Both the position numbers and the translations under genes were made by a program. From a virus (Duplodnaviria > Heunggongvirae > Uroviricota > Caudoviricetes), in IMG/VR virus record IMGVR_UViG_3300009132_000002: a DNA stretch of 64,000 bases; one strand, given 5' to 3'. Positions 330 through 47,070 of this stretch are shown here, piece after piece. The notes below the pieces were generated by a model. That model did not search any database. It saw nothing but the letters and a program-made list of their open reading frames with translations, and had not been told where the DNA came from. The first letter of the stretch is position 1. Every line of letters begins with the position of its first letter.

Positions 330-564
330 TATATCCAGATCCTGTTTTATTTGGACCAGTTTCTACTCCGCTATTGCAACCTACAACAACCACAAGTAAA
401 AAGAATATGGACCAAAGTACTATTCTTTTAGTCCACACCATGAATTGTTCAAATGTTTTTTCTGCTTCTGCTTGCGCTGCGGCTCTTACTTCTTCGTCAG
501 TCATGTTCGCCGCCAGGACCTCTACTACTATAAAAACTATGGGGATTGCGTTTAGCTGTTTCAA
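301..564 (-). CDS. hypothetical membrane protein (87 aa, one TM segment)
   Basis: ORF track; hydrophobic stretch IVLWSIFFLLVVVVGC. Confidence 0.35.
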   Translation of the reverse strand: MKQLNAIPIVFIVVEVLAANMTDEEVRAAAQAEAEKTFEQFMVWTKRIVLWSIFFLLVVVVGCNSGVETGPNKTGSGYNGNQYDPKI

Positions 565-802
565 ATACAGCTACAGTAATAGCGGTAGCACCCAGTAACA
601 GCGTATGTGCTATCATACTATAAAGCCCTGCCCACATACTCCCTATAATAATACCAAACGCAATACACCACATCCAAGCCAATACTTGCATAATCATATG
701 TCTTGTATTTAAATCTGGAATGTTACGCAATGGATTAAGATTGTGATCCATTACAACATTCCAACTGTTGTAAATAAAATTAATCATCGTCTTTCCTATC
801 AA
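497..802 (-). CDS. hypothetical multi-pass membrane protein (101 aa)
   Basis: ORF track; several hydrophobic segments (WMWCIAFGIIIGSMWAGLYSMIAHTLLLGATAI). Overlaps the previous ORF, so one start is likely shorter. Confidence 0.35.
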   Translation of the reverse strand: MIGKTMINFIYNSWNVVMDHNLNPLRNIPDLNTRHMIMQVLAWMWCIAFGIIIGSMWAGLYSMIAHTLLLGATAITVAVFETAKRNPHSFYSSRGPGGEHD

Positions 803-1309: not shown

Positions 1310-1348
1310 GGGGGCGATTACCCGCCCCCTCGGCTGTTTTATTTTTCT
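1310..1348 (+). terminator. plus-strand intrinsic terminator-like hairpin (GGGGGCG-ATTAC-CGCCCCC) followed by a T-rich tract
   Basis: Perfect 7-bp GC stem, then tcggctgTTTTATTTTT; oriented against the minus-strand genes around it. Confidence 0.35.
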
Positions 1349-1563
1349 CCAGCCATTTCTTTACAGTCAAATGATGATTTAGAAAGTTGAATCGGAACAC
1401 CGCCTGCTTGAATACAAGCTTGTTGCCAATTCGGTTGTCTATAACTATCATAAACCGCAAACATACCGATACTAATACAAATAAAGATTAATACCGACAT
1501 AGCTATGAAGGAAGCAACTCCTAATTTGTCTACAATCTCTGCAGACATTGTTTGACTAGTCAT
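1339..1563 (-). CDS. small membrane protein (74 aa)
   Basis: ORF track; TM segment VASFIAMSVLIFICISIGMFAV; start/stop coupled to the proteolipid gene upstream. Confidence 0.4.
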   Translation of the reverse strand: MTSQTMSAEIVDKLGVASFIAMSVLIFICISIGMFAVYDSYRQPNWQQACIQAGGVPIQLSKSSFDCKEMAGEK

Positions 1564-1799
1564 TATACAGCAAACATTAACAATAATGCAACAAGGAACG
1601 AAAAGATTCCTAGTGCTTCAGCAAATGCTATACCAACAAACATATTGGCATTTTGTTCTGCTGATCTATGTGGCATAGCCATAGCAGCTTTTAGAAAAGA
1701 ACCTACAACGGTTCCTACTCCAATTGCTGCTAAACCCATGCCCATGCATGCTAATCCAGCACCAATCAATGATCCCATTTGTACGATATCACCGGTCAT
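1563..1799 (-). CDS. F/V-type ATP synthase subunit c-like proteolipid
   Basis: 78 aa with two TM helices. Helix 1 is Gly-rich ([12 protein letters not shown]). Helix 2 carries a conserved acidic residue in [25 protein letters not shown], compare c-subunit VALVEALPIIGVV / AVAESTGIYSLVIALILL. The polar loop is HRSAEQN rather than the canonical RQP. Confidence 0.5.
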
Positions 1800-1977
1800 T
1801 GCGTAATTTCCCGGCTTCTATCATTAGCTTCTTGGCTTCCTCGTGCATACCCAGCTTTGTAAGTTCGGCAGCCGCTCTCGAGTAACCCAGAAGTCTCGCA
1901 TAGTGATCTATTGAAGACCACAATCCCGATAAGGGTGAGAATACATAGTTTGATACCAATGCTGTCATTAAACCCAT
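1789..1977 (-). CDS. hypothetical protein (62 aa)
   Basis: ORF track. Confidence 0.3.
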
Positions 1978-2285
1978 CCTTTCATGTTGCTGTTAGTTTC
2001 AGCTGATATTTTCATATCAGCGTCTTTACGTGCAACAGAATAGATGTCTCCTCGACACATACCAATATCTGCTAATTCACGATCAGTTAACATATTAAGT
2101 TCTCTAATAGTTTGTTTGATCGCTGCTTGATTTGTTCTGTATCTTATAAAAGACCTAAAGAGTTCTATGAATAGTTCAATTGCCCTCGTTGAGTAATTGT
2201 GGGCTGTTAGTATTGCCTGTGTCATTGTTTTCCTCGTTTTTACCAATGTTGATTTTACGAGGACGCATTTCTTCTGGAACAACAT
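1968..2285 (-). CDS. hypothetical protein; C-terminus resembles DUF1127 (LTDRELADIGMCRGDI). True start probably internal.
   Basis: ORF track. The 5' end overlaps the hsp20 gene by about 110 nt, so the real start is likely a downstream Met. Confidence 0.35.
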   Translation of the reverse strand: MLFQKKCVLVKSTLVKTRKTMTQAILTAHNYSTRAIELFIELFRSFIRYRTNQAAIKQTIRELNMLTDRELADIGMCRGDIYSVARKDADMKISAETNSNMKGWV

Positions 2286-6233: not shown

Positions 6234-7439
6234 TTAATTTTTTTTAGAAATTAATTTCTCTAATATTGCTAAATTATTAGTTCCTAGGTTATAAAGCAAT
6301 TGTGGATGATTAATAGAACATTTAACAGAATTTCTAGTAAAGTCTAAATCAAAACGAGCACCGGCTGAATCCATACCAGTATTTACAAGAAATACATTAC
6401 AATTATTAGCATGTATCTTTTGCATCAATAAATCACTATATTCGGTTACAGGTCTAGGCATGAACGGTGATCCATAGCATGGGCTAAATATCTTTTTAAT
6501 TTCGTTATTTCCAGCCTCGGTACCGGGCATTTGGCTCGTATATCCTGTTTCAAAGAAACGCCGAACTGTATCACCTTTTATCATACTTATAGGAGGAAAT
6601 GATCCAGTCACATCCATAGTTAAAAAGAATATATTATCTGGATGACTAAAATCTTTATTACTATGATAGGCATTTTCAACTGAGGTAATTGGATAACTTA
6701 ATCTAGCATTTGGCACACCTGGATTTTCTACCACTAAACAGTCTTTATTTCTAGCATCTTCTACGGCATTGAAAATAGTTGGATGGGTTTCTAGGCTAAG
6801 ACCTTCACTTTTAGCATAGCATCCAGTCTCAATCATTCTAATTCCATCTTGATTCCAGTAAACTTCATCATCACTGATTAGCTTATAATCTGGATCACTA
6901 CTTAATGTTGTTTTACCTGTTCCACTTAATCCAAACATAAGATTGGTTGTATCTTTATAAGTAAAGGCACTACAGTGCATTGGTAGCACACCACTTTCTG
7001 GTAGCTCAAAGCTAACGATACCAAAAACACCTTTCTTAATTTCACCTAAAAATGTGGTGCCAGCAATAAGCATCCTGCACTCATTTAGGTGAACATAGAT
7101 TTTGGGTTCTTCGACTTTAAATCCAGTATGATGATATATCGTCCAATCTGCAGTGTATTGTAAAGGATTATCTACTACTGGAAACATATTGCGAACAAAT
7201 TGAGCATGTCTATCGTCATTAGTTTCTACTCTAAAGCAATAACCACAACTATAAAAAACCAAATTATGATTATATTCTAATTCGTACATATCGTTATGTA
7301 ATTTCCAAAAATCTTTTTCATCGCCAATTTTATTATAATCTGGACGATCATGATCAAGATATTTTGTTTTTGAACCAAAGAAATATTTGTTTTTTGGGCT
7401 TCTACCTGTAGGATATGTTTCTATTTCAATATTAGGCAT
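6234..7439 (-). CDS. pckA: phosphoenolpyruvate carboxykinase (ATP), PckA homolog
   Basis: Full catalytic core collinear with E. coli PckA: YPTGRSPKNKYF, HAQFVRNMF, kinase-1a P-loop MFGLSGTGKTTLSSDP, ISDDE..W...G..E.GCYAK, SYPI, FFLT.D..G..PP. 401 aa. Confidence 0.8.
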   Translation of the reverse strand: MPNIEIETYPTGRSPKNKYFFGSKTKYLDHDRPDYNKIGDEKDFWKLHNDMYELEYNHNLVFYSCGYCFRVETNDDRHAQFVRNMFPVVDNPLQYTADWTIYHHTGFKVEEPKIYVHLNECRMLIAGTTFLGEIKKGVFGIVSFELPESGVLPMHCSAFTYKDTTNLMFGLSGTGKTTLSSDPDYKLISDDEVYWNQDGIRMIETGCYAKSEGLSLETHPTIFNAVEDARNKDCLVVENPGVPNARLSYPITSVENAYHSNKDFSHPDNIFFLTMDVTGSFPPISMIKGDTVRRFFETGYTSQMPGTEAGNNEIKKIFSPCYGSPFMPRPVTEYSDLLMQKIHANNCNVFLVNTGMDSAGARFDLDFTRNSVKCSINHPQLLYNLGTNNLAILEKLISKKN

Positions 7440-18208: not shown

Positions 18209-19429
18209 TTAATCGCCAGATACTGCTGTATATGTTGGGTATCTTCTTATAGTTCCATCACCTTGAGTACCCCAAACAATTCTTACAGCTCCATCACCAC
18301 CTTTTTGTCCATGGCCAATAGTACTTTGAAGAATACCGGCACCACCACCGCCAGGTGAAGCAGCTTTACCACTAAAAAATGGGTGATTTGATGTACCAGA
18401 AGTTGGTGGAGTTATCGAACCTTCACCACTTGCTGGACCTAAGTTTACGTTACCAGATGAAGCGGTATTAGAACCATGAACGGAAGGATACTGATGTACA
18501 CCTGTATTTGAAGTACTTATGGGAGTTAAACCATTATCACCTTGACCATATATTCCGGTTGCACCACCCGCTTGTCTTAAATTTGGAAAAGTCCAACCAG
18601 AACCGGTTTGGGTGCGTAAACCACCGGCACCACCACCAGCACCACCACTACCAGCAGTAGGTGATCCATCTGCATCTTGTCCTCGTCCACCACCAGAACC
18701 ATAACCAGCTGCACCACCCCCACCTGGAGACCTATGTGGAGTAGAAGTTGAACTAGAACCACCACGACCACCAGTTCCTCCAGCAATTTTTGCAGCGCCG
18801 CCACTCATACCACCGGCACCACCTGCAGTGTTATTTGCTGTATCAGTCGACCCGCCTTCGCCACCATATGCAATTAATCTGTCGGTACCACCATAAGAAA
18901 TAATAGTATCCCCACCGTCAGATCCATCTGCCCCAGAGCTTGTTCCACCAGCGCCACCACTACCAACAGTAATTGTTACAGTATTTCCAGCAGTAACTGC
19001 CCAATGACCATAAACCGCACCGCCTCCGCCGCCAGCAGATGCCGCAGTGGCTGAAGTAGATGAATTACCTCCACCGCCGCCTCCGCCGCCTATACAAACA
19101 GCTGAAATTTCTGTAACTCCACTTGGTACTGTCCATGAAAAGGATGTATCAAAAGTAAGACCAGAAGTGTTTCTATCAAATATAGCAGACATTGCTATAG
19201 TATCAAATCCTTGATTTCGGAAATCACTAAAACTAATTTGACCACTTGTAGGAATTCCAGATGTAACCACAGAACTAGTTACAACATTAGTTGCTGTTAC
19301 AGCTGTTTGAACATTAGTCCCATTTCTATAATATTCTGATAAACTCATTGCGGGAGGTGATTGATCTTCAAACATTTCCTCTATATCGTTATCAAATGAT
19401 ATGGCTCCGGTGTTTGGTATAAATGGCAT
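18209..19429 (-). CDS. glycine-rich repeat protein (406 aa), probable fibre/structural protein
   Basis: Long GGxGG/GSGG tracts; start overlaps the stop of the giant fibre gene (ATGCC at 19429). Confidence 0.6.
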   Translation of the reverse strand: MPFIPNTGAISFDNDIEEMFEDQSPPAMSLSEYYRNGTNVQTAVTATNVVTSSVVTSGIPTSGQISFSDFRNQGFDTIAMSAIFDRNTSGLTFDTSFSWTVPSGVTEISAVCIGGGGGGGGNSSTSATAASAGGGGGAVYGHWAVTAGNTVTITVGSGGAGGTSSGADGSDGGDTIISYGGTDRLIAYGGEGGSTDTANNTAGGAGGMSGGAAKIAGGTGGRGGSSSTSTPHRSPGGGGAAGYGSGGGRGQDADGSPTAGSGGAGGGAGGLRTQTGSGWTFPNLRQAGGATGIYGQGDNGLTPISTSNTGVHQYPSVHGSNTASSGNVNLGPASGEGSITPPTSGTSNHPFFSGKAASPGGGGAGILQSTIGHGQKGGDGAVRIVWGTQGDGTIRRYPTYTAVSGD

Positions 19430-22400
19430 TATTTTTCCTTCTCAAGTCTTTCAACTTTTTCGGAAAGTTCTTTAATTGCTTCAATTAACAAAGGAACCAA
19501 CTTTTCATATCTAACAGCTTTATATCCATCTTCTCGTGTTGTTGTAACTTCTGGTAACACTTCTTCAACTTCTTGAGCTAAGACTCCAGCCTCTCTGAGA
19601 GTTTGATCTTTATCTTCAGCTAATTCATTCCAGTTAAATGTATATCCAGAAATTTTATTTATCTTATCTAAAGCATTATCAATTACAGAAACATTAGTCT
19701 TTAATCTTTCATCTGATGTTCCAAATGCAGTAATATCTCCTGTCGCAGTAAAGGCACCAGTAAGTGTAAAGTTACCAGTGTAAGCCCCGGACATTGCTAA
19801 ACCACTAGTTTGTTGTGTTAAACCACTACCAGCAGCAACACTAAATGTAGTACCACTTAAACCAATGCCACTACCCGCTGAATATGTAGTATTATTATCT
19901 GTGCTACTTATAGTAAAACTAGGATAAGTTCCACTAATACTTGTTGCGCCACTACCTGTTAAAACTACGGTTTGATCAGGGGCTGTATTAGTAAATTCAT
20001 TACTTGAATCAAGAGAAAGCCCAGTTCCTGCAGTATATACTTCACCAGCAGTCCCGGGCTCGAAGCTTGATGTAGTACTATTATAAACAATCGTTTCACC
20101 ATTAGCAATACCTGACGTTGACACGTCGGTTAAATCGTTAATAACCGAAGGTATAGTACCTAAAGCAGCAGTAGAAAGAGATTGTACATGGCCCCATTCA
20201 TCGTAGTTTACATTTTGTATTACAGTAGTGCCGGAATTACTACCAGTATGCGATGAACCAGAACCAGTGGCACCATGTGAAATTGTAACTGTTTCAGATG
20301 TTGAGCTGTTTGTTGTAAACGCTCCACTATTAGTTCCCGGCTGACCACCTCCACTAATAGCAATACCATTTACGCCGCCTGTGCCAGCTTGTCCTTGTAT
20401 TGTTATAGTTTCATTATTTATTTGTTCAATCTGAACAACTGAACCAATAACCATATCACCATTATTATCTACTTCAATTTCAATACCATCTGTTGACTTG
20501 ATAGTAAGTGTAGTATCTTCTCCACTGTCTGGACCTTGATGAAGTAATTTGAAATCAACCTCATTTGAATCACCACCAGCAACAAAATCTGAAATATATG
20601 TAGTATTAGGTAAGTGCATACTATCAGCACTAATTTCTATTCTTCCATCATGTGTTCCAGCTGGAGCGATAGATGAAACTGTTATTCCACCAGAACCGAA
20701 CACTTCAATATATTGAGAAGAAGTATTTGCATCTGCATCAGTCTCAGTAAATGTAATTCTTGGTAAAGTGCCAGGAGATGAAGCATTTGCTTGTAATGTT
20801 GAAGTAATTTGAAGTGGTGCTGCACTAAAATTAAGTGAAGCATTAGAAGCGCCAGGATTTGTAACACTTACGCTAAGCCCATTTGAAGCAGTAACTGCAA
20901 GATTAGTTGTAGTAGTAATACCAGTTGCAGGGCTTGAATCATTAAGAGTTATGAAATTAGAATTACCTACAGATGTTCCGGTAATTGTGCTTACAGCCTG
21001 AAGATCAACGCCCGATATTGTTATTTCATCAGAGGCTTGAGATACTGAAATGCCATTAGTTCCTAAAAAGCTTACTTGGTCATCAACCGTGGCACTATTA
21101 ATTGTTTCAGTAAGAACTAGCTTTGCGCCACCTGATACATCAGCAGATGATACAGCATATCTTGCGAGTAAAGGATTAGCGTCTATAACAATAGAGTTTG
21201 TGCCTGAACCATCTACGTTAATTCCATTAGTACCTGAAATACTAATTGTTTCTACTCTCTGTTGACCATCAGAATCAACAGTTAAATTTATTGTACCACT
21301 ATTTGATGCAGATCCACCGCCTGATAAAGCATAGCTAGATTGTAAACCAAATACAGTTTCTTGTGTAAGAGTTGAAGTAATTTCTATGGCATTATTACCA
21401 TCATCATAATTAACTGATATATTATCATCACCAGACATAATATTACCAACAGCATCTTGTGCACGCTCATTAGTAAAATATAAATTAGTAGTTCCTTCTG
21501 GTAATCCATCAGTATTAGTAATACCTTCAAAATCAATAGTTTTAGCTGACTGATCTACAGTAATTTTACCTATACCACCGCCCGATGCATCATAAACATT
21601 ATTATTATTAGTATTATCAGAAGTTAATGCTAAAAACACTCTAGCAGAATCAAAATATAAATTTAATCCTGACGGTCCTTCTGGAATATCATCCGTTGTT
21701 AAACCATTTTGTCGACCAGTTGCATCTCCAACTGTAGTTGGAGTGGTTCCACCAGGGTTAGTGAAATTGAATGAACCTCCATTTTCTATATTCATATTTA
21801 CAGTACCATCTTCTTCAACAGAAAATACTGCATCACCTTTTGCTGTAGCATCAACTAAAGGATTTTTATTTGAAAATATACCAAAGAAGTTATCAGTTTC
21901 ATTATCATTTCTATCTAAGAAATTAAATATACTCTGACGGGAAGCAGTTGCTATACTATTAGTACCTTTACCAAGATTATAACCAAGATCAATTATTTCA
22001 TGATCTAGGGAATCCGCAAAAAATCTATATGATTGAACATCAAGATCACCACCCAATTGAGGCGTTTGATCATATACAATATGAAGATTACCTCTATGGA
22101 AGTTTATAAATCCATTTTGTAATACACCATCTATATTTGGAGTTTCAAATGCTATTTTATCATTAAGATTATCACCAACTCTAATAATTAATGATCTTTG
22201 AGAATCTTCTTCAGACGCAAGATAAATTCTAGCACTATCTTCATTAATACCACTTGCTGTAAAAGAAGTTCCTTCAAAGGCTAATCCTTTATACCTACCT
22301 TCGGTGAGCATAAGAGTTTGATTAATTTTTGTATTATGATTTTCATCTATCCATGCTTCTCTCTGACCATTCCATGCAGATAAAGAGTTTGGCTGTTCAG

Positions 22401-25221
22401 GACCATATGTATGAAATGTTCCTTTTGTGATACTAAAGTTTAAATCTGCATATGGAGAACTTGAAGAATCATCGCTACTTATTTCATGAGCTTTAGCTGT
22501 TCCACCGGTACCGGTTTTTTGAAATACTGCTGCGTAAGGATTTCTAATAGGAGTTGTTGGCGCATTATAGAGTTTCATCAATCCCTGATCAAACGCCGTT
22601 GTTCTTAAATTATTATTTACGTTTGCTATCCAAGCATCAGCCGATGTTATTGCACCAATATGACCATTAGACATACTATTAATAGCATTAGATAATAATG
22701 TAGAATTGGCTGAATCACTATGTGTATCAAATGTAGTTGAAGAAAGCTTGGTTCCACTAGAATTAAATGTGGTAAGATTTAATCCTCTACCGTGTCCATG
22801 ATAACCCTTTAATAAAATTGGATTTTCATCAAACTCAAAATATTCTGTTTCATTATCAATATACAAATATGCTGGAGAATTATTATTTAATCCTGTTCCT
22901 CTCATTTCTATATATGCAGAACTTTGAGGTAAGCCACTTAAATCAACTTCTTTTATGAGCTGATATGAATTATCTGGATCTTTCCAATATAGAGTTTTTG
23001 ATCTATCATTGTAAAAAAATCTACCAGTTTTCATTACCTCGTCAACGCCAACACTACTATCTAAAATATAGTATCCAGCGCTATCTACTGCTATAGGAAC
23101 TTCACCATCTCTAATATCTCTATCTGAAATAAAAGTATAAATTAAATCATTTTTAAGATCAAATATATTTTTATCATTATCATCAGTAGTAAATACGATA
23201 TCACTTATGATAACACCAGCTTGACCCTGTGTTCCAAATCCATATGCAGTTTCCGCATTTAAAAATGGTTGTAAAAATGTTTTTCCACTAAGTATGGCTT
23301 CTTCAATATCTAATTCAATACCAGTTTTAAATTCTGAATTTTCTATATCAGTATCACCAAATTGGTTTGTAAGAACTCTTATTATATTCCCTTGTTTTTC
23401 AGCAAAAACAGTTGTCTGGCCAGATGAAACCCAATCACTAGTTGATTGACCATCATATGTTGGTGTTATCGGCGCAGGTGCAGCACCTTTTGAAACATAA
23501 TCAAAATCAAAATAGAATTCGTCTGATTGACCAAAATTATAGACTAAACCCCAAGAAGGCGGATCTACTATTATTGTACCATTTTCAAGATAATCACTAT
23601 AATCTTGAAGAGTGCCTTTTGGTCTTCTAAAAGCACTAATAGTGTATTCTTTACCGCGTATTCTTAACTGAGCTACAACTAAGAATATTGGAAAATCTGT
23701 TGCTGCTGTGGAATTAAACGTTGCATTAACATTATAATTTTCATATTTTTTAGGTGATATGATACCTGCAAATGTTCTCGGGGCAAAATCACTATATATG
23801 CTATTAGTAGTTTCATCATATCTTAATGCTTGTGTGTCTGAATCATTAAATGGAAAGGTAAAATCTTCTTCTGGATCAGTATCTAATTCTCTTTGATCGT
23901 AATGAGAAAATCTACTAAACTGATCATAGTATTTGTATTTACCTTGAGAATCCATAGACTCAAGTTGAGTATCAGGGATATAATCTTTTTCAACATTTAA
24001 CTGATCACCGTTAAATACGAATCTTCCTCTTTTAAGAGCATAATCTAAATAGTATGATTGTGCAGATTCTTCATATGATAAAAACTGCCCATCTCTTCCA
24101 GATAAATTAAGAAGAATATTGTTAGATGATGTGTTACCTGTAGTATCATCGGAAGCAATAGAATCAGCATATCCAAATAAATCTGGTTCTATTCTCCAAG
24201 CTTGTGCTGCACTATCATAGTATATTTTTACATTGCTATCAGCAGCCCATTTTATTCCATCACTGTCTAAAACGTATTGATTTACATGAATAGATTTTGC
24301 TACAACCACACCGGTTTCATCAATACTAAAAATCGCATTATTTTTATCAATTGAATCAGTATATGCGTTTAAATCGTTATATAGTGCCCAATAATTTCCG
24401 GTTTCAGTATTATTGACATCTAAGAAATTATGTATAGATTGTAGTGAAGTTAATCCTACATTATTATTTCTATCTACTGGTTCATCATAATCTAAATCTA
24501 ATGTATTACCACTATCTGCTGATCCAGCACCATATATTCTCTGACCATTTATTTCTAAGTCAGTGACAAGTGTATTAGCAGCTAATTGATTAGTTTGTAA
24601 ATAGTCAACATATTTTAGATTTGTAATATGAGCCGAATCAACTCTCATACCAGAAATATAAGCTGAATCTGCAGTAAGCTTTCCTATTACAGCTGAATCT
24701 ATATTAAAACTATTTACTGGTACACCAAAATCTGATTCAAACTCATCTACTGGTAAATCTGTTAAAAACACATCAGGCGGATTACCATTTGCAAATATTG
24801 TGAAATTTAAATCTGAAAAAGTGCTTTCTATCCATTGACCATTTTTTAAATTTCGTTCAGATTCTGCTACTGCAGTACCTATTATAAAATCTAATGATCT
24901 ATTTCCTTGTGGATCAAGAATAGTATTTTCATCAAGATATAATCTAACTGGGATATTAGATGTATACAGTTTTTTATCTGGTGGATTTAATCCTGTTTCT
25001 ATAGCTGATGAATTTGGAAAAAAACTATAACCGGGTAAAGTTTCCTGAGAAAAGAACCAACCACGAATATAATCTGGATTAGGTGCGGTTTCTAAATCTA
25101 CAGAAAACTCAACCCAAACTGTATCACGGTCAATTGTTCTAGTAATTGTGCCAGACGAACTGGAAGGATCTATTGTCCCGCTTTGCCCCTTGTCTGTGAT
25201 ATAGGAAACTAAATCATACAT
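19429..25221 (-). CDS. giant fibre protein (1930 aa) with C-terminal intramolecular chaperone (peptidase S74-type) domain
   Basis: C-terminus ...FGTSDERLKTNVSVIDNALDKINKISGYTFNWNE...GVLAQEVEEVLPEV...YEKLVPLLIEAIKEL matches the auto-cleaving chaperone of endosialidase / T5 L-shaped tail fibres. Ser/Thr/Gly/Asn-rich beta-rich body. Confidence 0.7.
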   Translation of the reverse strand: MYDLVSYITDKGQSGTIDPSSSSGTITRTIDRDTVWVEFSVDLETAPNPDYIRGWFFSQETLPGYSFFPNSSAIETGLNPPDKKLYTSNIPVRLYLDENTILDPQGNRSLDFIIGTAVAESERNLKNGQWIESTFSDLNFTIFANGNPPDVFLTDLPVDEFESDFGVPVNSFNIDSAVIGKLTADSAYISGMRVDSAHITNLKYVDYLQTNQLAANTLVTDLEINGQRIYGAGSADSGNTLDLDYDEPVDRNNNVGLTSLQSIHNFLDVNNTETGNYWALYNDLNAYTDSIDKNNAIFSIDETGVVVAKSIHVNQYVLDSDGIKWAADSNVKIYYDSAAQAWRIEPDLFGYADSIASDDTTGNTSSNNILLNLSGRDGQFLSYEESAQSYYLDYALKRGRFVFNGDQLNVEKDYIPDTQLESMDSQGKYKYYDQFSRFSHYDQRELDTDPEEDFTFPFNDSDTQALRYDETTNSIYSDFAPRTFAGIISPKKYENYNVNATFNSTAATDFPIFLVVAQLRIRGKEYTISAFRRPKGTLQDYSDYLENGTIIVDPPSWGLVYNFGQSDEFYFDFDYVSKGAAPAPITPTYDGQSTSDWVSSGQTTVFAEKQGNIIRVLTNQFGDTDIENSEFKTGIELDIEEAILSGKTFLQPFLNAETAYGFGTQGQAGVIISDIVFTTDDNDKNIFDLKNDLIYTFISDRDIRDGEVPIAVDSAGYYILDSSVGVDEVMKTGRFFYNDRSKTLYWKDPDNSYQLIKEVDLSGLPQSSAYIEMRGTGLNNNSPAYLYIDNETEYFEFDENPILLKGYHGHGRGLNLTTFNSSGTKLSSTTFDTHSDSANSTLLSNAINSMSNGHIGAITSADAWIANVNNNLRTTAFDQGLMKLYNAPTTPIRNPYAAVFQKTGTGGTAKAHEISSDDSSSSPYADLNFSITKGTFHTYGPEQPNSLSAWNGQREAWIDENHNTKINQTLMLTEGRYKGLAFEGTSFTASGINEDSARIYLASEEDSQRSLIIRVGDNLNDKIAFETPNIDGVLQNGFINFHRGNLHIVYDQTPQLGGDLDVQSYRFFADSLDHEIIDLGYNLGKGTNSIATASRQSIFNFLDRNDNETDNFFGIFSNKNPLVDATAKGDAVFSVEEDGTVNMNIENGGSFNFTNPGGTTPTTVGDATGRQNGLTTDDIPEGPSGLNLYFDSARVFLALTSDNTNNNNVYDASGGGIGKITVDQSAKTIDFEGITNTDGLPEGTTNLYFTNERAQDAVGNIMSGDDNISVNYDDGNNAIEITSTLTQETVFGLQSSYALSGGGSASNSGTINLTVDSDGQQRVETISISGTNGINVDGSGTNSIVIDANPLLARYAVSSADVSGGAKLVLTETINSATVDDQVSFLGTNGISVSQASDEITISGVDLQAVSTITGTSVGNSNFITLNDSSPATGITTTTNLAVTASNGLSVSVTNPGASNASLNFSAAPLQITSTLQANASSPGTLPRITFTETDADANTSSQYIEVFGSGGITVSSIAPAGTHDGRIEISADSMHLPNTTYISDFVAGGDSNEVDFKLLHQGPDSGEDTTLTIKSTDGIEIEVDNNGDMVIGSVVQIEQINNETITIQGQAGTGGVNGIAISGGGQPGTNSGAFTTNSSTSETVTISHGATGSGSSHTGSNSGTTVIQNVNYDEWGHVQSLSTAALGTIPSVINDLTDVSTSGIANGETIVYNSTTSSFEPGTAGEVYTAGTGLSLDSSNEFTNTAPDQTVVLTGSGATSISGTYPSFTISSTDNNTTYSAGSGIGLSGTTFSVAAGSGLTQQTSGLAMSGAYTGNFTLTGAFTATGDITAFGTSDERLKTNVSVIDNALDKINKISGYTFNWNELAEDKDQTLREAGVLAQEVEEVLPEVTTTREDGYKAVRYEKLVPLLIEAIKELSEKVERLEKEK

Positions 25222-39609: not shown

Positions 39610-40104
39610 CTAATTTACACTTTTTCTTCTAATTGCTATTGCCTTTTTAGGATCAAATTTAGCATAGCTTACAGTATTGTCTTGATTTCCACCCAAGATT
39701 ATCCATCTTGTTTTATTTTCATATTGAACTTCTTCTATAAAGAAACCTACATGTCCTTGCCATATTTTATCTCCTCTTGGAAATACTACTATGTCACCTT
39801 TTCTAGGTTTATCTAATACTTCTTCACCCCAAGTTAGAAATGATCTAGCCAAAAGTGGATAATCACTTGTAACTTCAGATCCGGATATTCCTTGCATATC
39901 AAGAACAAAATTAACAAATGCTGCACACCATTGAGTATATACTGGGTCAACACCGACTAATTTTTTTATTTGATTTCTGTCTTTATTTTCATCTAAGCCA
40001 ATATATTGTTCTGCTGGTTTAGATAAATCTTGAAATTCCTCTATAGGTTGACACGCTATAAGAAAACTTAAACAGAAAATTCCTACTGCATTTTTTCTAA
40101 ACAT
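39610..40104 (-). CDS. NlpC/P60 (CHAP-like) peptidoglycan hydrolase lipoprotein
   Basis: Lipobox FLIAC; catalytic Cys in QWCAAFVNFV and His in QGHVGFF. Confidence 0.6.
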   Translation of the reverse strand: MFRKNAVGIFCLSFLIACQPIEEFQDLSKPAEQYIGLDENKDRNQIKKLVGVDPVYTQWCAAFVNFVLDMQGISGSEVTSDYPLLARSFLTWGEEVLDKPRKGDIVVFPRGDKIWQGHVGFFIEEVQYENKTRWIILGGNQDNTVSYAKFDPKKAIAIRRKSVN

Positions 40105-40838
40105 GGCAGATATGCACCCATTGGATGATCACCAATGTTGTCTATTTTGCCTTTCTTTAAGCCCATCCACATGCCCATCAGTCTATCTTTCACTCTTCTC
40201 CAGCCTGTGGCTTTACTATAATCGCCGTGTCTATTAAAATAGTGCATAGTACCATGATGTCTATAACCCATAATCCAAAGAGGAACACGAGTAACTACAT
40301 CATTATTATTTACAAATCTGTGGTGAATCATTCCTAGACTCTTAACATATTTTTTCCAGCCAACTCTTGGCGAACCATATGTGTAAACTTCTACAGGATC
40401 TGCAAGCTTTTCATCGTGAAATGCTCTACTAGCCATAATAGTTGTCATTGCAGCACCTAAACTGTGTCCACAAAACCATAGCTTTTTTCTTACGTTTGTT
40501 TTAACTTCAAGATGTGGTTTTATCATTGGCCATAAATCATCAACTTCGGCTTTAAATCCTTGATGTACTCTGCTTATAGTTTCTGCCATGACAGGTACTG
40601 CTTTTAAATCAGCTTTAACATCATTCCATTGAGTTGGTTCTGTGCCTCTACAAGCAATAACAATGTCATATTTATTCATAAATCTATATGCTTGGGCGCC
40701 ATCTCTATCATAAAATGTTGTTTGATTAAATCCTAAACGTCTTGCAGCTTTCTTCGCTTCTTCAAAAGGTAAATACGATATAGCTGCTAATTTACCAAAT
40801 AATAAACTTCTTTCTTCAAATGATAATCTGGATAGCAT
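40083..40838 (-). CDS. class 3 lipase / alpha-beta hydrolase
   Basis: Nucleophile elbow FCGHSLGAAMTT; late promoter TATAAATA at 40866-40873, 28 nt upstream. Confidence 0.65.
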   Translation of the reverse strand: MLSRLSFEERSLLFGKLAAISYLPFEEAKKAARRLGFNQTTFYDRDGAQAYRFMNKYDIVIACRGTEPTQWNDVKADLKAVPVMAETISRVHQGFKAEVDDLWPMIKPHLEVKTNVRKKLWFCGHSLGAAMTTIMASRAFHDEKLADPVEVYTYGSPRVGWKKYVKSLGMIHHRFVNNNDVVTRVPLWIMGYRHHGTMHYFNRHGDYSKATGWRRVKDRLMGMWMGLKKGKIDNIGDHPMGAYLPCLEKMQ

Positions 40839-41664: not shown

Positions 41665-41749
41665 TGGTACGCCTGGAGGGCTTCGAACCCCCACTCCTTA
41701 CGGAACTAGATCCTAAATCTAGCGTGTCTGCCTATTCCACCACAGGCGC
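41665..41749 (-). tRNA. tRNA-Leu (anticodon TAG), type II
   Basis: Acceptor GCGCCTG/CAGGCGT, anticodon arm CTAGA-TTTAGGA-TCTAG, T-loop GGTTCGAAG, encoded CCA, long variable arm. Confidence 0.7.
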
Positions 41750-41754
41750 ATATT

Positions 41755-41827
41755 TGGTAGTGTTGGATAGAATCGAACTATCTCTTCAGGCTTATGAGAC
41801 CCGAGTCGGCACCTAACCGCAACACTA
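41755..41827 (-). tRNA. tRNA-Met/Ile2 (anticodon CAT)
   Basis: Acceptor AGTGTTG/CAACACT, T arm GATAG-TTCGATT-CTATC, loop CTCATAA, CCA encoded. Confidence 0.6.
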
Positions 41828-42364
41828 TTTTACTATAAGCTCATCAATATGAACGGGCTTATAATCAGTTTGTTCAACACATACACATTTGTATGGTCCA
41901 TTTGGGCTTGCATTTTGGTGAATATGACCATGAACATTAATTAGGTTATTTTCACCAAATCTATCTTTTTCTCCTAAAGTAGTTGGATGTGCTGGAGTAT
42001 GTGTAAACAATAATCCATGCGGCATATTTTCTAAAAGAAGATGTCTCCATAACGTTACCTTTTTAAAAAAAGGAGCTAACATTTTTATGTTATCGTGGTT
42101 ACCAACAACCAATCTTTTTCGTCCGGGCAACTTTACAAAATTTTCTTCTAGCCACTCTACCTTGTTTAAACCGAAAAGAACATCACCCAAATGATAGATA
42201 ATATCACCGGGTTTGACAGTGTCATTCCAATTGTCTAACATACACTCATTCATTTCATTAACATTAGAAAAATTACGTGTTGGTTTACCAACAGAATCTT
42301 TAAAGGTTAATATGTTTGAATGATTAAAGTGTGTATCACTAATAACCCATATATCTCTATTCAT
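41825..42364 (-). CDS. calcineurin-like metallophosphoesterase
   Basis: ISDTHFNH, LGDVLF, GNHDN, HGHIH motifs. Confidence 0.65.
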   Translation of the reverse strand: MNRDIWVISDTHFNHSNILTFKDSVGKPTRNFSNVNEMNECMLDNWNDTVKPGDIIYHLGDVLFGLNKVEWLEENFVKLPGRKRLVVGNHDNIKMLAPFFKKVTLWRHLLLENMPHGLLFTHTPAHPTTLGEKDRFGENNLINVHGHIHQNASPNGPYKCVCVEQTDYKPVHIDELIVK

Positions 42365-42554
42365 AGTACATTCCTTTATGAATTGGCAACTGAGGCTCTG
42401 TTATTACCTTCTCTGAGAGGGCCAGTCATTTCGCTCTTTACGTCCTTAGAATCGCAGCAAGGACTTCCAACTTATGAAACTAATATACTATAGTTCTTAT
42501 GATAAGTAAATAGATAAAATATGTTTTTACCTTTCTGTGACAAATATGTTACAG

Positions 42555-42989
42555 TCAATGATGATAAGAATTTTTGACTTCAACAAATGCACCATCTTCA
42601 ACTTTAAAGAAATTTGTTGGATGTTTATTAATGTCTCCCGTACAGCGAAAATATGCTCTACCACCATCTAAGGCTATAGTACCAACAGCATGGAAATCGT
42701 GTCTATGTTGACTATAATGCCAACAATCACCCACCTCTTTCATTCCAAACTCAACCTTTTCAATTCTATCAGCATTTGTAATCACCATATCATCATGGTA
42801 CCAATATAAACCAAAATATTTATTTCCAAATTCTGGATGAGGTGTCTCTCTATAAAAAATATCCATCGCTTTGGATTCATAACCGAGAGCGCTTGTACAG
42901 ATATACTTTATTTCAACACCATCTTTTTTAGAATAGTGATCCACAATAGTTGCGGTATTAAAGATAGGTCTATGACAAATATTAAACAT
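42555..42989 (-). CDS. hypothetical His-rich protein, possibly cupin-like
   Basis: Start moved to Met54 (MFNICHRP, RBS AAGGGA) because an early promoter (-35 at about 43044-50) lies inside the longer ORF-track version. Confidence 0.4.
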   Translation of the reverse strand: MFNICHRPIFNTATIVDHYSKKDGVEIKYICTSALGYESKAMDIFYRETPHPEFGNKYFGLYWYHDDMVITNADRIEKVEFGMKEVGDCWHYSQHRHDFHAVGTIALDGGRAYFRCTGDINKHPTNFFKVEDGAFVEVKNSYHH

Positions 42990-43009
42990 GATATTTCCCT
43001 TATTAATCC

Positions 43010-43052
43010 TTTCACTACTAGTATAACATATTTTTTCTAATTTGTAAACCAT
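43010..43052 (-). promoter_or_regulatory. early promoter (GTTTACA-N17-TATACT)
   Basis: Minus strand GGTTTACAAATTAGAAAAAATATGTTATAC. Confidence 0.45.
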
Positions 43053-43070
43053 TTTATGCATTATATTATT

Positions 43071-43146
43071 TGGAGTACGTGACTGGATTCGAACCAGCAT
43101 GATCCGGGGTTGCAATCCGGCGCCTAACCATTCAGTCCACACGCAC
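43071..43146 (-). tRNA. tRNA-Cys (anticodon GCA), tentative
   Basis: Acceptor GTGCGTG/CACGTAC, anticodon loop TTGCAAC, T arm GCTGG-TTCGAAT-CCAGT, CCA encoded; D arm irregular. Confidence 0.45.
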
Positions 43147-43153
43147 ATATTTT

Positions 43154-43230
43154 TGGAGAACCGTCAGGGGTTCGAACCCTGGACCCCCCGATTAAAAGTC
43201 GGGTGCTCTACCAACTGAAGCTAACGGTTC
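43154..43230 (-). tRNA. tRNA-Lys (anticodon TTT)
   Basis: Acceptor GAACCGT/ACGGTTC, loop CTTTTAA, T-loop GGTTCGAAC, CCA. Confidence 0.75.
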
Positions 43231-43237
43231 AATAAAA

Positions 43238-43313
43238 TGGCGGTCTCAGAAGGACTCGAACCTTCAACCTACGGTTTAGAAGACCGTTGCTCTTCCAGTT
43301 GAGCTATGAGACC
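43238..43313 (-). tRNA. tRNA-Arg (anticodon TCT)
   Basis: Acceptor GGTCTCA/TGAGACC, anticodon arm ACGGT-CTTCTAA-ACCGT, T-loop GGTTCGAGT, CCA. Confidence 0.75.
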
Positions 43314-43314
43314 A

Positions 43315-43689
43315 TTATTCTTTTTCATTAAGTGGCTTAAAGCCATCTAATTTTTCTGTTCTTGGTTCTGGTGTTACAATTTCTTTATCAGAACCATATT
43401 GTTGTTTATGAACTACTTCATTATGAATTTGCTTACTATCTACACTGCGTACGATATAGAAACCTTTATTATATGAAGATATAGCAAAAACTAAAAAGGC
43501 TAAACCAACCGCTATTTTAAATGCGATTTTGACCTTCTTTAGTGCTTCAATTCTATCGCCAAAAATTTCGTTTTCAGGCTCTTTCAGGAATCCTCGGCAT
43601 ATAATATATACGCCGAAGATAAACACTAGAGAAATAATAAGTTTAGCAATTGCATATAGAAGTGCAGAAACTAAAAATGTAAACTCCAT
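43315..43689 (-). CDS. membrane protein (124 aa), partner of the SPFH protein (NfeD-like role suspected)
   Basis: Two TM segments; start 8 nt after the SPFH gene stop. Confidence 0.5.
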   Translation of the reverse strand: MEFTFLVSALLYAIAKLIISLVFIFGVYIICRGFLKEPENEIFGDRIEALKKVKIAFKIAVGLAFLVFAISSYNKGFYIVRSVDSKQIHNEVVHKQQYGSDKEIVTPEPRTEKLDGFKPLNEKE

Positions 43690-43696
43690 TTTTCAC

Positions 43697-44611
43697 CTAT
43701 TTTTTGGTTGGATCAGTTAAAGCAATAGCTGTTTCTAATCCTTGTGAACTTAGCATCTCAACTGGAAAGAATACAACATTTTCATTTCCACCTAGAGATT
43801 CAAGAACCTTCAACCGGCGATACTCTAATAGATCTGGAGTTACACCATTTGCAAGAATACGATTAGTTTCTGCAATTGTTTCAGCTTGTAGAATTTCAGC
43901 ATCTCGTTCTGCTCGTTCAACTTCTAGTTGAGCTTGTGCTTCTCGGATCCGAACTTGAGCATCAGCTTCTGCTCTTTCAATTGCAATGGTACGTTCTGCT
44001 GTGGCTTCCATAGCTTCACGTACAACATCTGGAAACTTAATGCTAGCTAAACCAAATTGTTTAACATCAAATGGTGTTCCTGCAAGTGCTTCTTCAACAA
44101 CATTTCTAAGGGATGCTGAGATTGCTGCCTGATTTGCTGCAATTTCTGATGTTGAATATTCTGACAGCTTAGATCGAACAATGTTACGAACAACTGCTTT
44201 ACCATAAACATCATAAATTCGAGCTAAATCAATATACATTTGATTTGTACCATCACGCCGTGAAGGTGATACCCGATCAAATACACCACGGAGAACTTTT
44301 TCATCCTGAGATAAACCTAGTGTAAATCTAACATCAACACTGATAATCAGGTTATCTTTTGGTAATAGGACATCTAAACTTTCCAGCATACCTTCGTCAC
44401 CTGCTTGGATAACAACTAACTTTTCACAGCCAACTGTCCACCACATACATGGCTTAAGTCTAAACGTTGATGGATTAATGACATCGCCAATATAACCATT
44501 AGGTCCAAGAACCATACCTACAGAAGCGGTTGGAACTTGCGCTCTTTCTCCACATGCTGTTAAAGCTAGTACTGATGCAGAAAGTAGAGACATTTTCAAA
44601 TATTTGTTCAT
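43697..44611 (-). CDS. SPFH / band-7 (stomatin-prohibitin-HflK/C) domain lipoprotein
   Basis: Lipobox LTAC after signal peptide; SPFH core; C-terminal Ala/Glu/Arg-rich coiled coil (ERAEADAQVRIREAQAQLEVERAERDAEILQ); strong sigma70 promoter 44660-44689. Confidence 0.7.
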   Translation of the reverse strand: MNKYLKMSLLSASVLALTACGERAQVPTASVGMVLGPNGYIGDVINPSTFRLKPCMWWTVGCEKLVVIQAGDEGMLESLDVLLPKDNLIISVDVRFTLGLSQDEKVLRGVFDRVSPSRRDGTNQMYIDLARIYDVYGKAVVRNIVRSKLSEYSTSEIAANQAAISASLRNVVEEALAGTPFDVKQFGLASIKFPDVVREAMEATAERTIAIERAEADAQVRIREAQAQLEVERAERDAEILQAETIAETNRILANGVTPDLLEYRRLKVLESLGGNENVVFFPVEMLSSQGLETAIALTDPTKK

Positions 44612-44659
44612 TCGAACACAATCATCCTTTTATTGTTTAAAATTTATAATAACTATACA

Positions 44660-44689
44660 ATTATAACATAAAATTTAATAATTGTAAAC
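44660..44689 (-). promoter_or_regulatory. strong sigma70-type promoter (GTTTACA-N17-TATAAT) for the SPFH operon
   Basis: Consensus -35 and -10 with 17-bp spacer; 49 nt upstream of the SPFH start. Confidence 0.6.
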
Positions 44690-44701
44690 CTTTTTTTTTA
44701 T

Positions 44702-44785
44702 TGGTGGGTCGAGCAGGAATCGAACCTGCCGTGCTTTTCAGCGGAGGATTTACAATCCCCTGTCACACCTTGTAACATCCGACCC
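44702..44785 (-). tRNA. tRNA-Tyr (anticodon GTA), type II
   Basis: Acceptor GGGTCGG/TCGACCC, anticodon arm GGGGA-TTGTAAA-TCCTC, T-loop GGTTCGATT, CCA. Confidence 0.7.
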
Positions 44786-44790
44786 AAATC

Positions 44791-44882
44791 TGGAAGAAAG
44801 CGGGTGGTATCGAACCCCAAGGAGCTACTAACCCCTCCACTAGTTTTCAAGACTAGGCTGTAGACCTCTACAGATCACTTTC
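44791..44882 (-). tRNA. tRNA-Ser (anticodon TGA), type II
   Basis: Anticodon arm CTAGT-CTTGAAA-ACTAG, long variable arm, T-loop GGTTCGATA, CCA. Confidence 0.7.
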
Positions 44883-44888
44883 CATATT

Positions 44889-44962
44889 TTGGTTGTCCTA
44901 GAAAGAATCGAACTTACATCTCACGATTATCAGTCGCGTGCTCTACCGTTGAGCTATAGGAC
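44889..44962 (-). tRNA. tRNA-Ile (anticodon GAT)
   Basis: Acceptor TGTCCTA/TAGGACA, D arm GCTC-AACGGTA-GAGC, loop CTGATAA, T-loop AGTTCGATT, CCA. Confidence 0.7.
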
Positions 44963-45377
44963 AATATTTTTTGTGGCGACACCACGGGAAGTTTAACCCG
45001 ACAGCAAATAGCAGTAAAACCAGTAACTGAACGTATGAGGTTCAATTATAAACCACTAGACTCACCACTTCCTAGGCACTGTCATGTTGTTTAACCAACA
45101 AGCTCCTAGCCACGGAAGTCTGATAACACACGTTCACAAATTCTGGTAAATTTGCTTCTATGCTTATCAGTGCCGCATTCGTATATAATTTGGTGCAGCT
45201 TACGGAATCGAACCGGGGTGATCAAGCCCATCTATCTAGAATGCCGTCCAACGGCTTCACTGCACAATTTAGTCAAAAGCAGAACATCAGGTGGGGACTC
45301 ACCCGACCCAATGTCCCAATGTGTTGTCGACAGCGCTTAGCAAATGCCAGTGGGGCAAGCCGACTGCTCTTAAGTTT

Positions 45378-45454
45378 TGGCTCCCTACTGAGGATTCGAA
45401 CCTCAAACACACAGATTAACAGTCTGCCGCCCCTGCCAATAGGGCCCCTAGGGA
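45378..45454 (-). tRNA. tRNA-Asn (anticodon GTT)
   Basis: D stem GCCC/GGGC, anticodon arm GCAGA-CTGTTAA-TCTGT, T arm TGAGG-TTCGAAT-CCTCA, CCA. Confidence 0.65.
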
Positions 45455-46063
45455 ATAATTCTCTTAGCTTTTTGACACGTTATTCCGTTTCATGCCTAAG
45501 TTCTTTTCAGCTAATGACTTTCAAGGTGTGCGTATTATGCGCTGGCCAACTCGGAACCCCGTTCGCACTCATTTGTATTTTCGTCAACACCCAATCTTTT
45601 CTCTTCCCCCTCACACAAGGAACGATGAGTTCGCAATCACGCTTATCATTATTCCTATAAAGAGCAGGTGTGCTGTGATAAAATAGAGTATCAATCCAAA
45701 TCGTGCTACCTCTACACTATAGGAGCCATAGCCCCTAGCAGGGATCGAACCTACGCCTATCCGGAGATGATACTCTACATTATCCTATACACCAGTTAAA
45801 CTTTTTTAACACCGTCGACTGTGTAACTGGATGTTGACGAAAATACAAAACAGTTTGGTTTTCCGTATCACTGGTCACGACACCACAGTATAGAGTTATC
45901 ACATAATTACTTTAGCTGGTTAAGCTTTAGTTGTATATGTATCAACTTGTATATCAAGGGAACTGACGGGACCAACCGCCTTCATCCTATCAAGAACTTA
46001 GTCTATCTCTAGTAACTGTCCATCGCGCAACCATCCACCGCCGTAACACTGGACACGGAAACT

Positions 46064-46139
46064 TGGCTCCCCAGCGAGGATTCGAACCTCGGACCTTCCG
46101 GTTAACAGCCGGCTGCTCTACCACTAAAGCTACTGGGAA
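46064..46139 (-). tRNA. tRNA with anticodon GTT (second Asn-like copy, identity uncertain)
   Basis: Acceptor TTCCCAG/CTGGGGA, D arm GCTT-TAGTGGTA-GAGC, loop CTGTTAA, T arm CGAGG-TTCGAAT-CCTCG, CCA. Confidence 0.5.
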
Positions 46140-46150
46140 AAATTCTTTTT

Positions 46151-46226
46151 TGGCGCTCCCGGAAGGACTCGAACCCTCAACCTCTTAGTTCGTAGCCAAG
46201 TGCTCTTCCAATTGAGCTACGGAAGC
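46151..46226 (-). tRNA. tRNA-Arg (anticodon ACG)
   Basis: Acceptor GCTTCCG/CGGGAGC, anticodon arm CTTGG-CTACGAA-CTAAG, T-loop GGTTCGAGT, CCA. Confidence 0.7.
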
Positions 46227-46235
46227 ATTTATTAT

Positions 46236-46310
46236 TGGTGCTATGGGGAGGGATCGAACCCCCGACACCAGGATCTTCAATCCTGTGTTCTACCTCTGAA
46301 CTACCATAGC
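46236..46310 (-). tRNA. tRNA-Phe (anticodon GAA)
   Basis: Acceptor GCTATGG/CCATAGC, anticodon arm CAGGA-TTGAAGA-TCCTG, T-loop GGTTCGATC, CCA. Confidence 0.75.
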
Positions 46311-46317
46311 GTAATTT

Positions 46318-46393
46318 TGGTACGGGATAAAGGAGTCGAACCTATGACCTTCTGTGTGTAAAACAGCTGCTCTACCAACTGAGCTAATCCCGC
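46318..46393 (-). tRNA. tRNA-Val (anticodon TAC)
   Basis: D arm GCTC-AGTTGGTA-GAGC, anticodon arm CTGT-TTTACAC-ACAG, T-loop GGTTCGACT, CCA. Confidence 0.6.
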
Positions 46394-46466
46394 TCTAATA
46401 GCAAACTTTTTAGAAGGGTAGTCTTTCCCCACTGTTTACCAGATATGTAAACGACTTTTTGTTTCT

Positions 46467-46958
46467 TCATTCTATTAGATTCTTTATATAATCTGTGCGG
46501 CCGTGAGCAACACCATCTGCTCCAAAGCTGGCTGCCCAACTTTCTGGCTTAAGCTTAGGTTCGATCCCTGTCATTCCAAGAACATAACCTGCTGCTTCAC
46601 TGGCCGCACAGTTTGAACCATGACGCGGGTCGGTGTTAATATCAAGATGTATCTCGATATCAAACTCGTCAATAAATGGTCCAATTTGAGTATATAATTC
46701 ACAAACTTTTTGAACTTCTTTCATCATCCGCATTTTGGGACGATTTGCTTTCATATCATAGTCTGGTTCACGTGAAGTATGAGAAAATATTTTACAACCT
46801 TTATTGCCATTTTTATGAATAATAGCAACAGTAGCATATCGAGCCATTTTACGCCCTTTAATATATCTTACTGAATCACAACCAAGATATACCTTTGTGT
46901 TTTCATCACATTCTACTAGTATATCAACCATTTCTTCGATCTGATTTTGTGTAAACAT
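46467..46958 (-). CDS. hypothetical protein (163 aa) embedded in the tRNA island
   Basis: ORF track; flanked by tRNA genes on both sides; possible RNase-H-like fold (speculative). Confidence 0.5.
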   Translation of the reverse strand: MFTQNQIEEMVDILVECDENTKVYLGCDSVRYIKGRKMARYATVAIIHKNGNKGCKIFSHTSREPDYDMKANRPKMRMMKEVQKVCELYTQIGPFIDEFDIEIHLDINTDPRHGSNCAASEAAGYVLGMTGIEPKLKPESWAASFGADGVAHGRTDYIKNLIE

Positions 46959-46993
46959 TTTCTTATTCCATTTATGTGTTACGAATTACTTTT

Positions 46994-47067
46994 TGGATGC
47001 CCGCTGAGGGGTCGAACCTCAATTTCTTGATCCAAAATCAAGCGTCCTGCCATTAGACGACCGGGCA
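46994..47067 (-). tRNA. tRNA-Gln (anticodon TTG)
   Basis: D arm GTCT-AATGGCA-GGAC, anticodon arm CTTGA-TTTTGGA-TCAAG, T arm TGAGG-TTCGACC-CCTCA, CCA. Confidence 0.75.
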
Positions 47068-47070
47068 TTA

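Follow-up and report, generated by a model that had tools for sequence, protein, structure and literature searches.

Host-derived core subunits of bioenergetic complexes are carried by marine T4-like phages: cyanophages encode psbA (D1), which is thought to sustain the host complex. Small proteins associated with c rings include the assembly factor AtpI/UncI and, inside the c rings of V-ATPases, the single-pass proteins Voa1 and Ac45. In the Fillingame laboratory, mutants of the E. coli c subunit at R41, Q42 and P43 reportedly assembled Fo, with poor F1 binding or coupling; papers by Fillingame also deal with the binding of epsilon to this loop. The corresponding loop reads RQPE in Bacillus (PMC2914638), RQPD in Burkholderia (PMC5376962) and RQPD, RQPE, KQPE or RNPS across the F-type family (bioRxiv 10.1101/2024.02.27.582367). 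This polar loop of c links the ring to the central stalk subunits (PMC3542316). For mitochondria, an F1-free c ring has been proposed as a leak channel, the uncapped ring dissipating the membrane potential, in a model that is debated (PMC9433415). ATP synthase is the cell's central energy converter; in the literature searched, no virus-carried subunit of the enzyme was described and no report of a virus-encoded c subunit was found.

The window analysed here is a stretch of 64,000 nucleotides with a GC content of 0.347 (IMG/VR record IMGVR_UViG_3300009132_000002). Structural genes of the T4 type were recognised for the gp23 major capsid protein (488 bits), the scaffold, the gp20 portal (568 bits), the gp18 sheath, the gp17 terminase and the neck. 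Replication genes of the same type encode UvsW, a gp46-like SMC ATPase, the gp44 and gp62 clamp loader and the gp45 clamp, and the RegA translational repressor is also encoded. By capsid protein, the nearest cultured relatives are Phage C48C1 (66%), Pelagibacter phage HTVC008M (61%) and Methylophilales phage Melnitz (60.7%). A gene for an ATP synthase c subunit (hereafter phage c) is flanked on both sides by T4-like core genes and is phage-encoded. On one side of it lies regA/hsp20 and on the other, in related contigs, the gene for DNA polymerase; this is the early/middle replication-gene region, a position that reveals little of when c acts. Coordinates are given in Table 1, together with those of other genes of the window, among them five membrane, lipid and sugar-modifying auxiliary genes (the last five lines).

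Table 1. Positions of the c gene, its neighbours and other features in the window.
Feature	Coordinates	Strand	Description
F-type ATP synthase c-subunit homolog	1563-1799	-	78 aa; ATG start; PF00137, 5dn6_J, NF005733
Partner	1339-1563	-	Orphan 74-aa single-pass membrane protein; next to c in 85/87 viral loci
Upstream small ORF	1789-1977	-	59-62 aa; 3' end overlaps c start by 10 nt
DUF1127 (YjiS-like) protein	1968-2285	-	Pfam PF06568, 41.2 bits
GC-rich stem-loop	1305-1334	-	Directly after partner gene
Two-TM protein (predicted)	497-802	-	101 aa; no family match; 15 related loci keep it about 750 nt downstream of c
PEPCK_ATP, ATP-dependent phosphoenolpyruvate carboxykinase	6234-7439	-	291 bits; between clamp gene and gp46-like ATPase gene; also in L001-L005; unusual carbon-metabolism auxiliary gene
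1930-aa ORF	19429-25221	-	Between portal and capsid-region genes
26 tRNA genes	41665-51420	-	Nearly all amino acids; anticodons mostly for A/T-ending codons
SPFH/Band-7 scaffold	43697-44611	-	
Class-3 lipase	40083-40838	-	
Class-I aldolase-like	55231-56028	-	
GT25 glycosyltransferase	56572-57270	-	
NAD-dependent sugar epimerase/dehydratase	62022-63167	-	

The product of the c gene matched the Pfam family ATP-synt_C (PF00137) over the whole profile (positions 1-60 of 60) with 41.7 bits (E=1.4e-10), the gathering cutoff being 24 bits. It was aligned without gaps to the Paracoccus denitrificans c subunit (5dn6_J; E=2.2e-22; residues 5-78 onto 4-77), as a two-helix hairpin that can be superimposed in sequence, end to end, on a solved c subunit. 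Glu61 ('AFAEALGIF'), in the middle of helix 2, coincides with the ion-binding Glu of the P. denitrificans protein. In helix 1 the Gly packing motif is kept (G13, G15, G20, G22, G27, G29 and G33 are all there), and G23 is replaced by Leu, which also occupies this site in 5/66 cellular sequences. The cytoplasmic loop reads A41-M42-P43-H44-R45-S46 where cellular relatives have R-N-P-S-A-A, Pro alone being retained. Against the alphaproteobacterial-type equivalog NF005733 of NCBIfam, phage c scored 83.1 bits, under the curated cutoff of 85 bits; host proteins scored 110, the intermediate viral forms P0035 and P0101 97-99, which exceeds the threshold, class B 69 and class C 60-61. No PHROG family was matched, PHROG holins included, and tblastn against 50,697 GenBank phage records gave no hit. 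Among PADLOC defence profiles the best for phage c reached only E=0.056, and its neighbours in the cassette had no match.

Judged by sequence, phage c is a genuine c-subunit homolog of the Rhodobacterales type inside a T4-like myovirus. The preliminary description of this DNA had proposed a c-subunit-like proteolipid encoded by the phage: the two-helix ORF was found as described there, on the minus strand and starting with ATG, both helix stretches quoted (12 and 25 letters) were correct, the Glu stands at the ion-binding position and the canonical RQP is gone from the loop. The suggested comparison with PF00137 yielded the full-length match reported above. Generic Gly-zipper composition, which had been considered as the sole cause of the likeness, is ruled out by the PF00137 and 5dn6_J matches and by the number of homologs (1047). 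The word 'mimic' used at that time is too weak, this being a real host-derived c, about 65-76% identical to those of Rhodobacterales.

The 1047 homologs were obtained by searching 5.8 billion proteins. All named matches at 65-73% identity were 'F0F1 ATP synthase subunit C' of Rhodobacteraceae/Paracoccaceae. The best 80 loci, taking one genome per species, were exclusively from Rhodobacterales, with at most 76% identity to phage c, and the atp operon neighbours AtpI, a and b/b' were recovered beside 74-76 of the 77 cellular c genes. The top protein matches (about 31, with 74-100% identity) and all 80 loci drawn from IMG/VR lie on contigs of low GC (0.33-0.44) that reach 221 kb, with one on a 328-kb scaffold. 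The gene is widespread in marine phages, relatives being carried by 83 IMG/VR contigs (GC 0.33-0.44) and many metagenome contigs; public pipelines label the viral proteins just 'F-type H+-transporting ATPase subunit c'. Counts below refer either to loci (87 viral, 77 cellular) or to unique sequences (47 viral, 66 cellular). In a neighbour-joining tree, viral and cellular sequences separated cleanly. The c gene appears to have been captured from a Rhodobacterales-type host by an ancestor of these marine T4-like phages and then remodelled.

The remodelling is concentrated in the loop. R-N-P, in the form (L/F)RNP, was present in 77/77 cellular loci and in 0/87 viral loci. Among unique sequences, Arg41 was found in 0/47 viral and 66/66 cellular copies, Asn42 in 1/47 and 66/66, Gly38 in 0/47 and 66/66, and Asn34 in 2/47 and 64/66. 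Ile55 was changed to Val in 46/47 viral and 0/66 cellular sequences; Ala in place of Gly27, or Ala/Ser in place of Gly29, was found in 28/47 and 0/66, respectively. Glu61 was invariant (47/47 and 66/66). At least three loop architectures were distinguished in the viruses: A(M/L)PHRS, to which the window belongs (78 aa), TAVKDANAQQ (77 aa) and VLK(V/Y/H)MPKKxD (73-76 aa), the last being five residues shorter and found in most viral copies. One or two basic residues remain in each viral loop, and the Pro remains in class A, so that some contact with F1 is possible. Overall, the loop that docks the F1 central stalk has been swapped out in every viral copy, whereas the ring-forming, proton-site and stator-facing parts (helix 2 with Glu61, and the glycines of helix 1) have stayed host-identical.

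Selection was estimated within viral classes (NG86), where dS was approximately 1. Whole-gene dN/dS values were 0.093 and 0.076; by region, helix 2 gave 0.048 and 0.030, helix 1 gave 0.12 and 0.09, and the loop gave 0.25 and 0.115. GC3 was 0.30 in viral c genes versus 0.72 in cellular ones, and the best nucleotide identity of a viral c gene to any cellular gene was 69%. With dS at this level, such a gap in GC3 and at most 69% nucleotide identity, the identity of helix 2 has been kept by selection and not by recency. Taken together, dN/dS, GC3 and nucleotide divergence indicate that the acquisition is old, that the gene is functional and that the new loops are constrained as well. As is expected of an auxiliary metabolic gene (AMG), phage c has a close cellular homolog, resides in a bona fide viral genome and is under purifying selection.

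Downstream of c, the stop codon of c and the ATG of the partner gene overlap by 1 nt (TAATG at 1561-1565). The two viral loci in which the partner was not seen beside c are on contigs that stop just beyond the c gene. The overlap and the co-occurrence support the earlier proposal that c is co-transcribed with this small membrane protein gene. The partner has 'SAEIVDKLG' in its N-terminal part and a TM helix of strong hydrophobicity; its conserved tail, 'QPNW..ACI..GGVP.Q...FDCK', includes two Cys and is truncated in one subclade. It was not assigned to any Pfam, PHROG, NCBIfam or PADLOC family. A word search gave three hits. Seven came from an exhaustive HMMER scan across 1.84 billion representatives, and five of these seven are credible small proteins. 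As to membrane orientation, the positive-inside signal of the partner is a weak bias (K+R 1.1 versus 1.9). An AF2 model of the partner consists of the TM helix, a short helix and a beta hairpin (pLDDT 73), and that of the upstream ORF of two helices (pLDDT 80); for neither model did Foldseek find a match with E<1 in the PDB. By analogy, the partner could nucleate ring assembly, plug the lumen or form a cap. Supply of the RQP motif in trans by the partner, which has Y-R-Q-P-N-W after its TM helix, was considered and dropped, the Arg being K, N or S elsewhere in the family.

The c gene is the third of four minus-strand genes with overlapping stops and starts: DUF1127, the upstream ORF, c and the partner, followed by the stem-loop. 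The DUF1127 gene heads this run and is present in 82/87 viral loci; its true start is probably an internal Met, giving a protein of about 85 aa (roughly 1968-2225), and in L001-L004 the protein is called as 85 aa. The upstream ORF has a marginally hydrophobic N-terminus and a conserved helical hairpin, 'G(Y/R)(S/A)RAAAEL.R.G..EEAK..M', occurs in at least 64 of the 87 viral loci and has 168 unnamed homologs. The stem-loop folds with -22.7 kcal/mol (z = -4.45), and 0/200 shuffled sequences were as stable (RNA fold). In many related loci the partner gene is likewise followed by a hairpin, in several cases with a T-tract; the copy in the window was missed by a simple terminator scan because it has no T-run. 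It is likely the 3' end or a stabiliser of the transcription unit. A consensus scan for promoters and terminators gave nothing beyond shuffled expectation.

The same DUF1127/small ORF/c/partner module was observed at positions 1-20237 of L005, a viral locus on a 328-kb scaffold (ERZ23486420 scaffold_1). This scaffold also encodes IF3, ribosomal protein S21, ClpS, IMPDH, a class-II aaRS-like protein, a xanthine/uracil permease, PEPCK and a plastocyanin-like protein, and may derive from a jumbo phage with a translation-related gene set.

Which neighbours belong specifically to c was deduced from loci with partial modules. In the cultured OM43 phage Melnitz, the upstream-type ORF (gene 45) adjoins DUF1127 (genes 45/46) in a genome with neither c nor partner. 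Conversely, L169, with an unrelated phage backbone (PhoH, glutaredoxin), carries c and a clear partner homolog and neither DUF1127 nor the upstream ORF. There, c and partner (913-2234) lie directly upstream of an endolysin-like gene (PG_binding_1 and weak GH19), and the c loop is LLNPKIAP, with Asn-Pro retained. Since L169 has c and partner alone and Melnitz has the reverse pair, the specific unit is c plus the downstream single-pass protein. The upstream ORF and DUF1127 were accordingly rejected as c-specific partners, the Melnitz pair occurring without c; the upstream ORF is probably part of an older DUF1127-linked pair. That pair, DUF1127 with a 'RAAAEL..G..EEAK' protein, was seen in the window (1789-2285, minus strand), in L168 (3462-3889) and in Melnitz, where genes 45/46 are otherwise unannotated. 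A c gene with the loop LSNPRNA and without the partner was also observed in L171 (6001-6494) and L172 (2722-3238), which look viral (ClpP, WYL and Eco57I-like methylase neighbours) and have a tRNA-like sequence downstream of c.

Profile searches (E<=0.01) recovered no subunit a, b/b' or AtpI in the window or in the viral loci, so that any Fo function of phage c needs host parts. The partner and the upstream ORF were also examined as diverged AtpI, a or b proteins and discarded: hmmsearch gave nothing, and hhalign gave at most 17.7% probability, on a generic TM stretch.

Three features, the origin of c, the DUF1127 genes and the array of 26 tRNA genes, would agree with an AT-rich phage growing on a higher-GC alphaproteobacterial host of the Rhodobacterales; a tRNA array of this kind is typical of such a pairing. 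Low-GC pelagic Rhodobacterales are present among the cellular loci (locus GC 0.30-0.47, including Planktomarina and single-cell genomes), and a suitable host type is thus available. The c gene is also a clue to host range, tying an uncultured phage group to Rhodobacterales.

Were the gene retained merely to provide additional ATP synthase, one would expect the residues found in all host sequences to be retained too. Because the F1 interface alone has been rewritten, repeatedly and under constraint, and the rest is host-like, the simplest reading is a rotor subunit of Fo that is uncoupled from F1. Loss of R-N-P from every viral copy and its retention in every cellular copy favour the earlier idea of a poison or uncoupler over a plain metabolic booster, and the replacement of the loop suggests that the phage tampers with host energy coupling rather than merely boosting it. 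In the mechanism proposed, viral c would be inserted by a YidC-type route, assisted or capped by the partner, and would join host Fo, interspersed with host c or in a ring of its own. The resulting rotor would turn against host subunit a and still carry protons, and would be unable to grip gamma/epsilon, so that proton flow would be cut off from both ATP synthesis and ATP-driven pumping. Phage c would thus fit host Fo and not F1, and would uncouple the host ATP synthase or act on it as a dominant-negative, a reading that we put forward tentatively and rate a little short of an even chance. Several points count against it: some F1 contact is possible through the basic residues of the viral loops and the Pro of class A, it is not evident what a phage in need of ATP would gain, and a host c of the Rhodobacterales kind is required for co-assembly, the nearest cultured relatives infecting SAR11 and OM43. 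A more elaborate version, in which c and partner form a two-protein 'proton valve', the F1-blind c rotating in the host Fo rotor or replacing it and the virus using c and its dedicated partner together to set host proton-motive force and ATP synthase activity, is possible and rather doubtful.

Were phage c an ordinary AMG, an extra functional c subunit would sustain or raise host ATP synthase capacity, its altered loop still coupling to F1. This agrees with the ion-binding site and the two helices being very highly conserved under strong purifying selection, with the passage of P0035 and P0101 over the equivalog threshold, with c being present in more copies than any other subunit (12 per ring in 5DN6) and with further genes for energy and carbon metabolism on the phage, among them PEPCK and, in relatives, the plastocyanin-like gene. 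We nevertheless consider it unlikely: the residues that dock F1, kept without exception by the host sequences (66/66), are gone from 47/47 unique viral ones, a loop five residues shorter in most viral copies is hard to square with the same interface, no other subunit of the enzyme is supplied, and c is tied to an orphan partner absent from host operons. A further alternative assumes that viral c enters host rings in a mixture and shifts their stoichiometry (H+/ATP), so that ATP would be made at lower proton-motive force, F1 coupling being supplied by the remaining host loops. Gly to Ala changes in the helix-1 motif are known to enlarge c rings (PMC5376962), and the substitutions at Gly27 or Gly29 in 28/47 unique viral sequences, against 0/66 cellular ones, point in this direction. 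The class found in the window, however, keeps G27, G29 and G33, the sole change among its glycines of this motif being G23L, which is found in some cellular sequences; as the systematic loss of the F1 loop and the need for a partner would also go unexplained, a change of gear ratio seems quite improbable.

Finally, the viral c ring and the partner might work without host Fo, as a channel or plug for holin-like lysis timing, depolarisation or superinfection exclusion. The obligate pairing with a small membrane protein would fit such a device, as would the position of the pair directly upstream of the endolysin-like gene in one other lineage (L169), the F1-free c rings proposed as mitochondrial leak channels (PMC9433415) and the helix-1 Gly to Ala/Ser changes (28/47 unique viral, 0 cellular), which could alter ring geometry. 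Yet helix 2, including lipid- and stator-facing residues, is host-identical at saturating synonymous divergence, which is unexpected in a protein without host contact, no recurrent lysis gene was recognised among the commonest neighbour families of the 87 loci, no PHROG holin was matched and the module lies in the replication-gene region; independence from F1 and Fo is in our judgement improbable. A lysis cassette or holin as such was rejected, an endolysin-like neighbour occurring in the L169 lineage only and no recurrent one among the commonest neighbour families. The idea that c is a passenger without function, or that cellular DNA was wrongly joined to a phage contig during assembly, draws only on the general caveat that viral metagenomes may hold cellular sequence. 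It is extremely improbable given the same synteny in dozens of independent assemblies, phage-like codon composition, dN/dS of about 0.08 and the start and stop codon overlaps that join c to phage neighbours.

If the uncoupling or rewiring of ATP synthase by phage c is true, it would be a new viral route to control the bioenergetics of abundant ocean bacteria. A 'proton valve', if it exists, would mark the first case of a rotary ATPase component encoded by a virus and, at the same time, a dominant-negative of ATP synthase that arose in nature. Given uncoupling or rewiring, the loop variants and the ring-associated partner would also constitute a natural toolkit for studies of F1-Fo coupling and c-ring assembly.

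Compared with known systems, phage c resembles most directly the c subunit of Rhodobacterales (e.g. 5DN6 chain J; NF005733), with which it shares length, hairpin, helix 2 with its Glu and the helix-1 glycines, at 65-76% overall identity. It differs in the loop (A-M-P-H-R-S versus R-N-P-S-A-A), in the clade-wide changes at G38, N34 and I55 and in its genomic setting, the Rhodobacterales gene sitting in an atpI-a-c-b'-b operon and the phage gene beside an orphan membrane partner instead. In the E. coli Arg41/Gln42/Pro43 mutants the same loop positions are changed and the helices intact; those are laboratory point mutants, whereas the phage loop has been rebuilt naturally in three ways and is conserved, alongside a wild-type host c. 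Like psbA, phage c is a host-derived membrane subunit under purifying selection that relies on the rest of the host complex. Copies of psbA keep their functional sites, whereas phage c lost its interface to the catalytic sector, which indicates modification and not maintenance. The mitochondrial leak-channel model offers a parallel in the idea of an F1-free c ring that dissipates the membrane potential, but starts from normal rings that have lost F1. The partner can be likened, by analogy only, to AtpI/UncI, Voa1 and Ac45 as a small membrane protein tied to a c subunit; neither in sequence nor by profile is it similar to AtpI, a or b, and no structural match was obtained. Phage c is thus a member of the c-subunit superfamily by descent that lacks the loop and the operon, two features defining the working subunit, and has gained a new partner.
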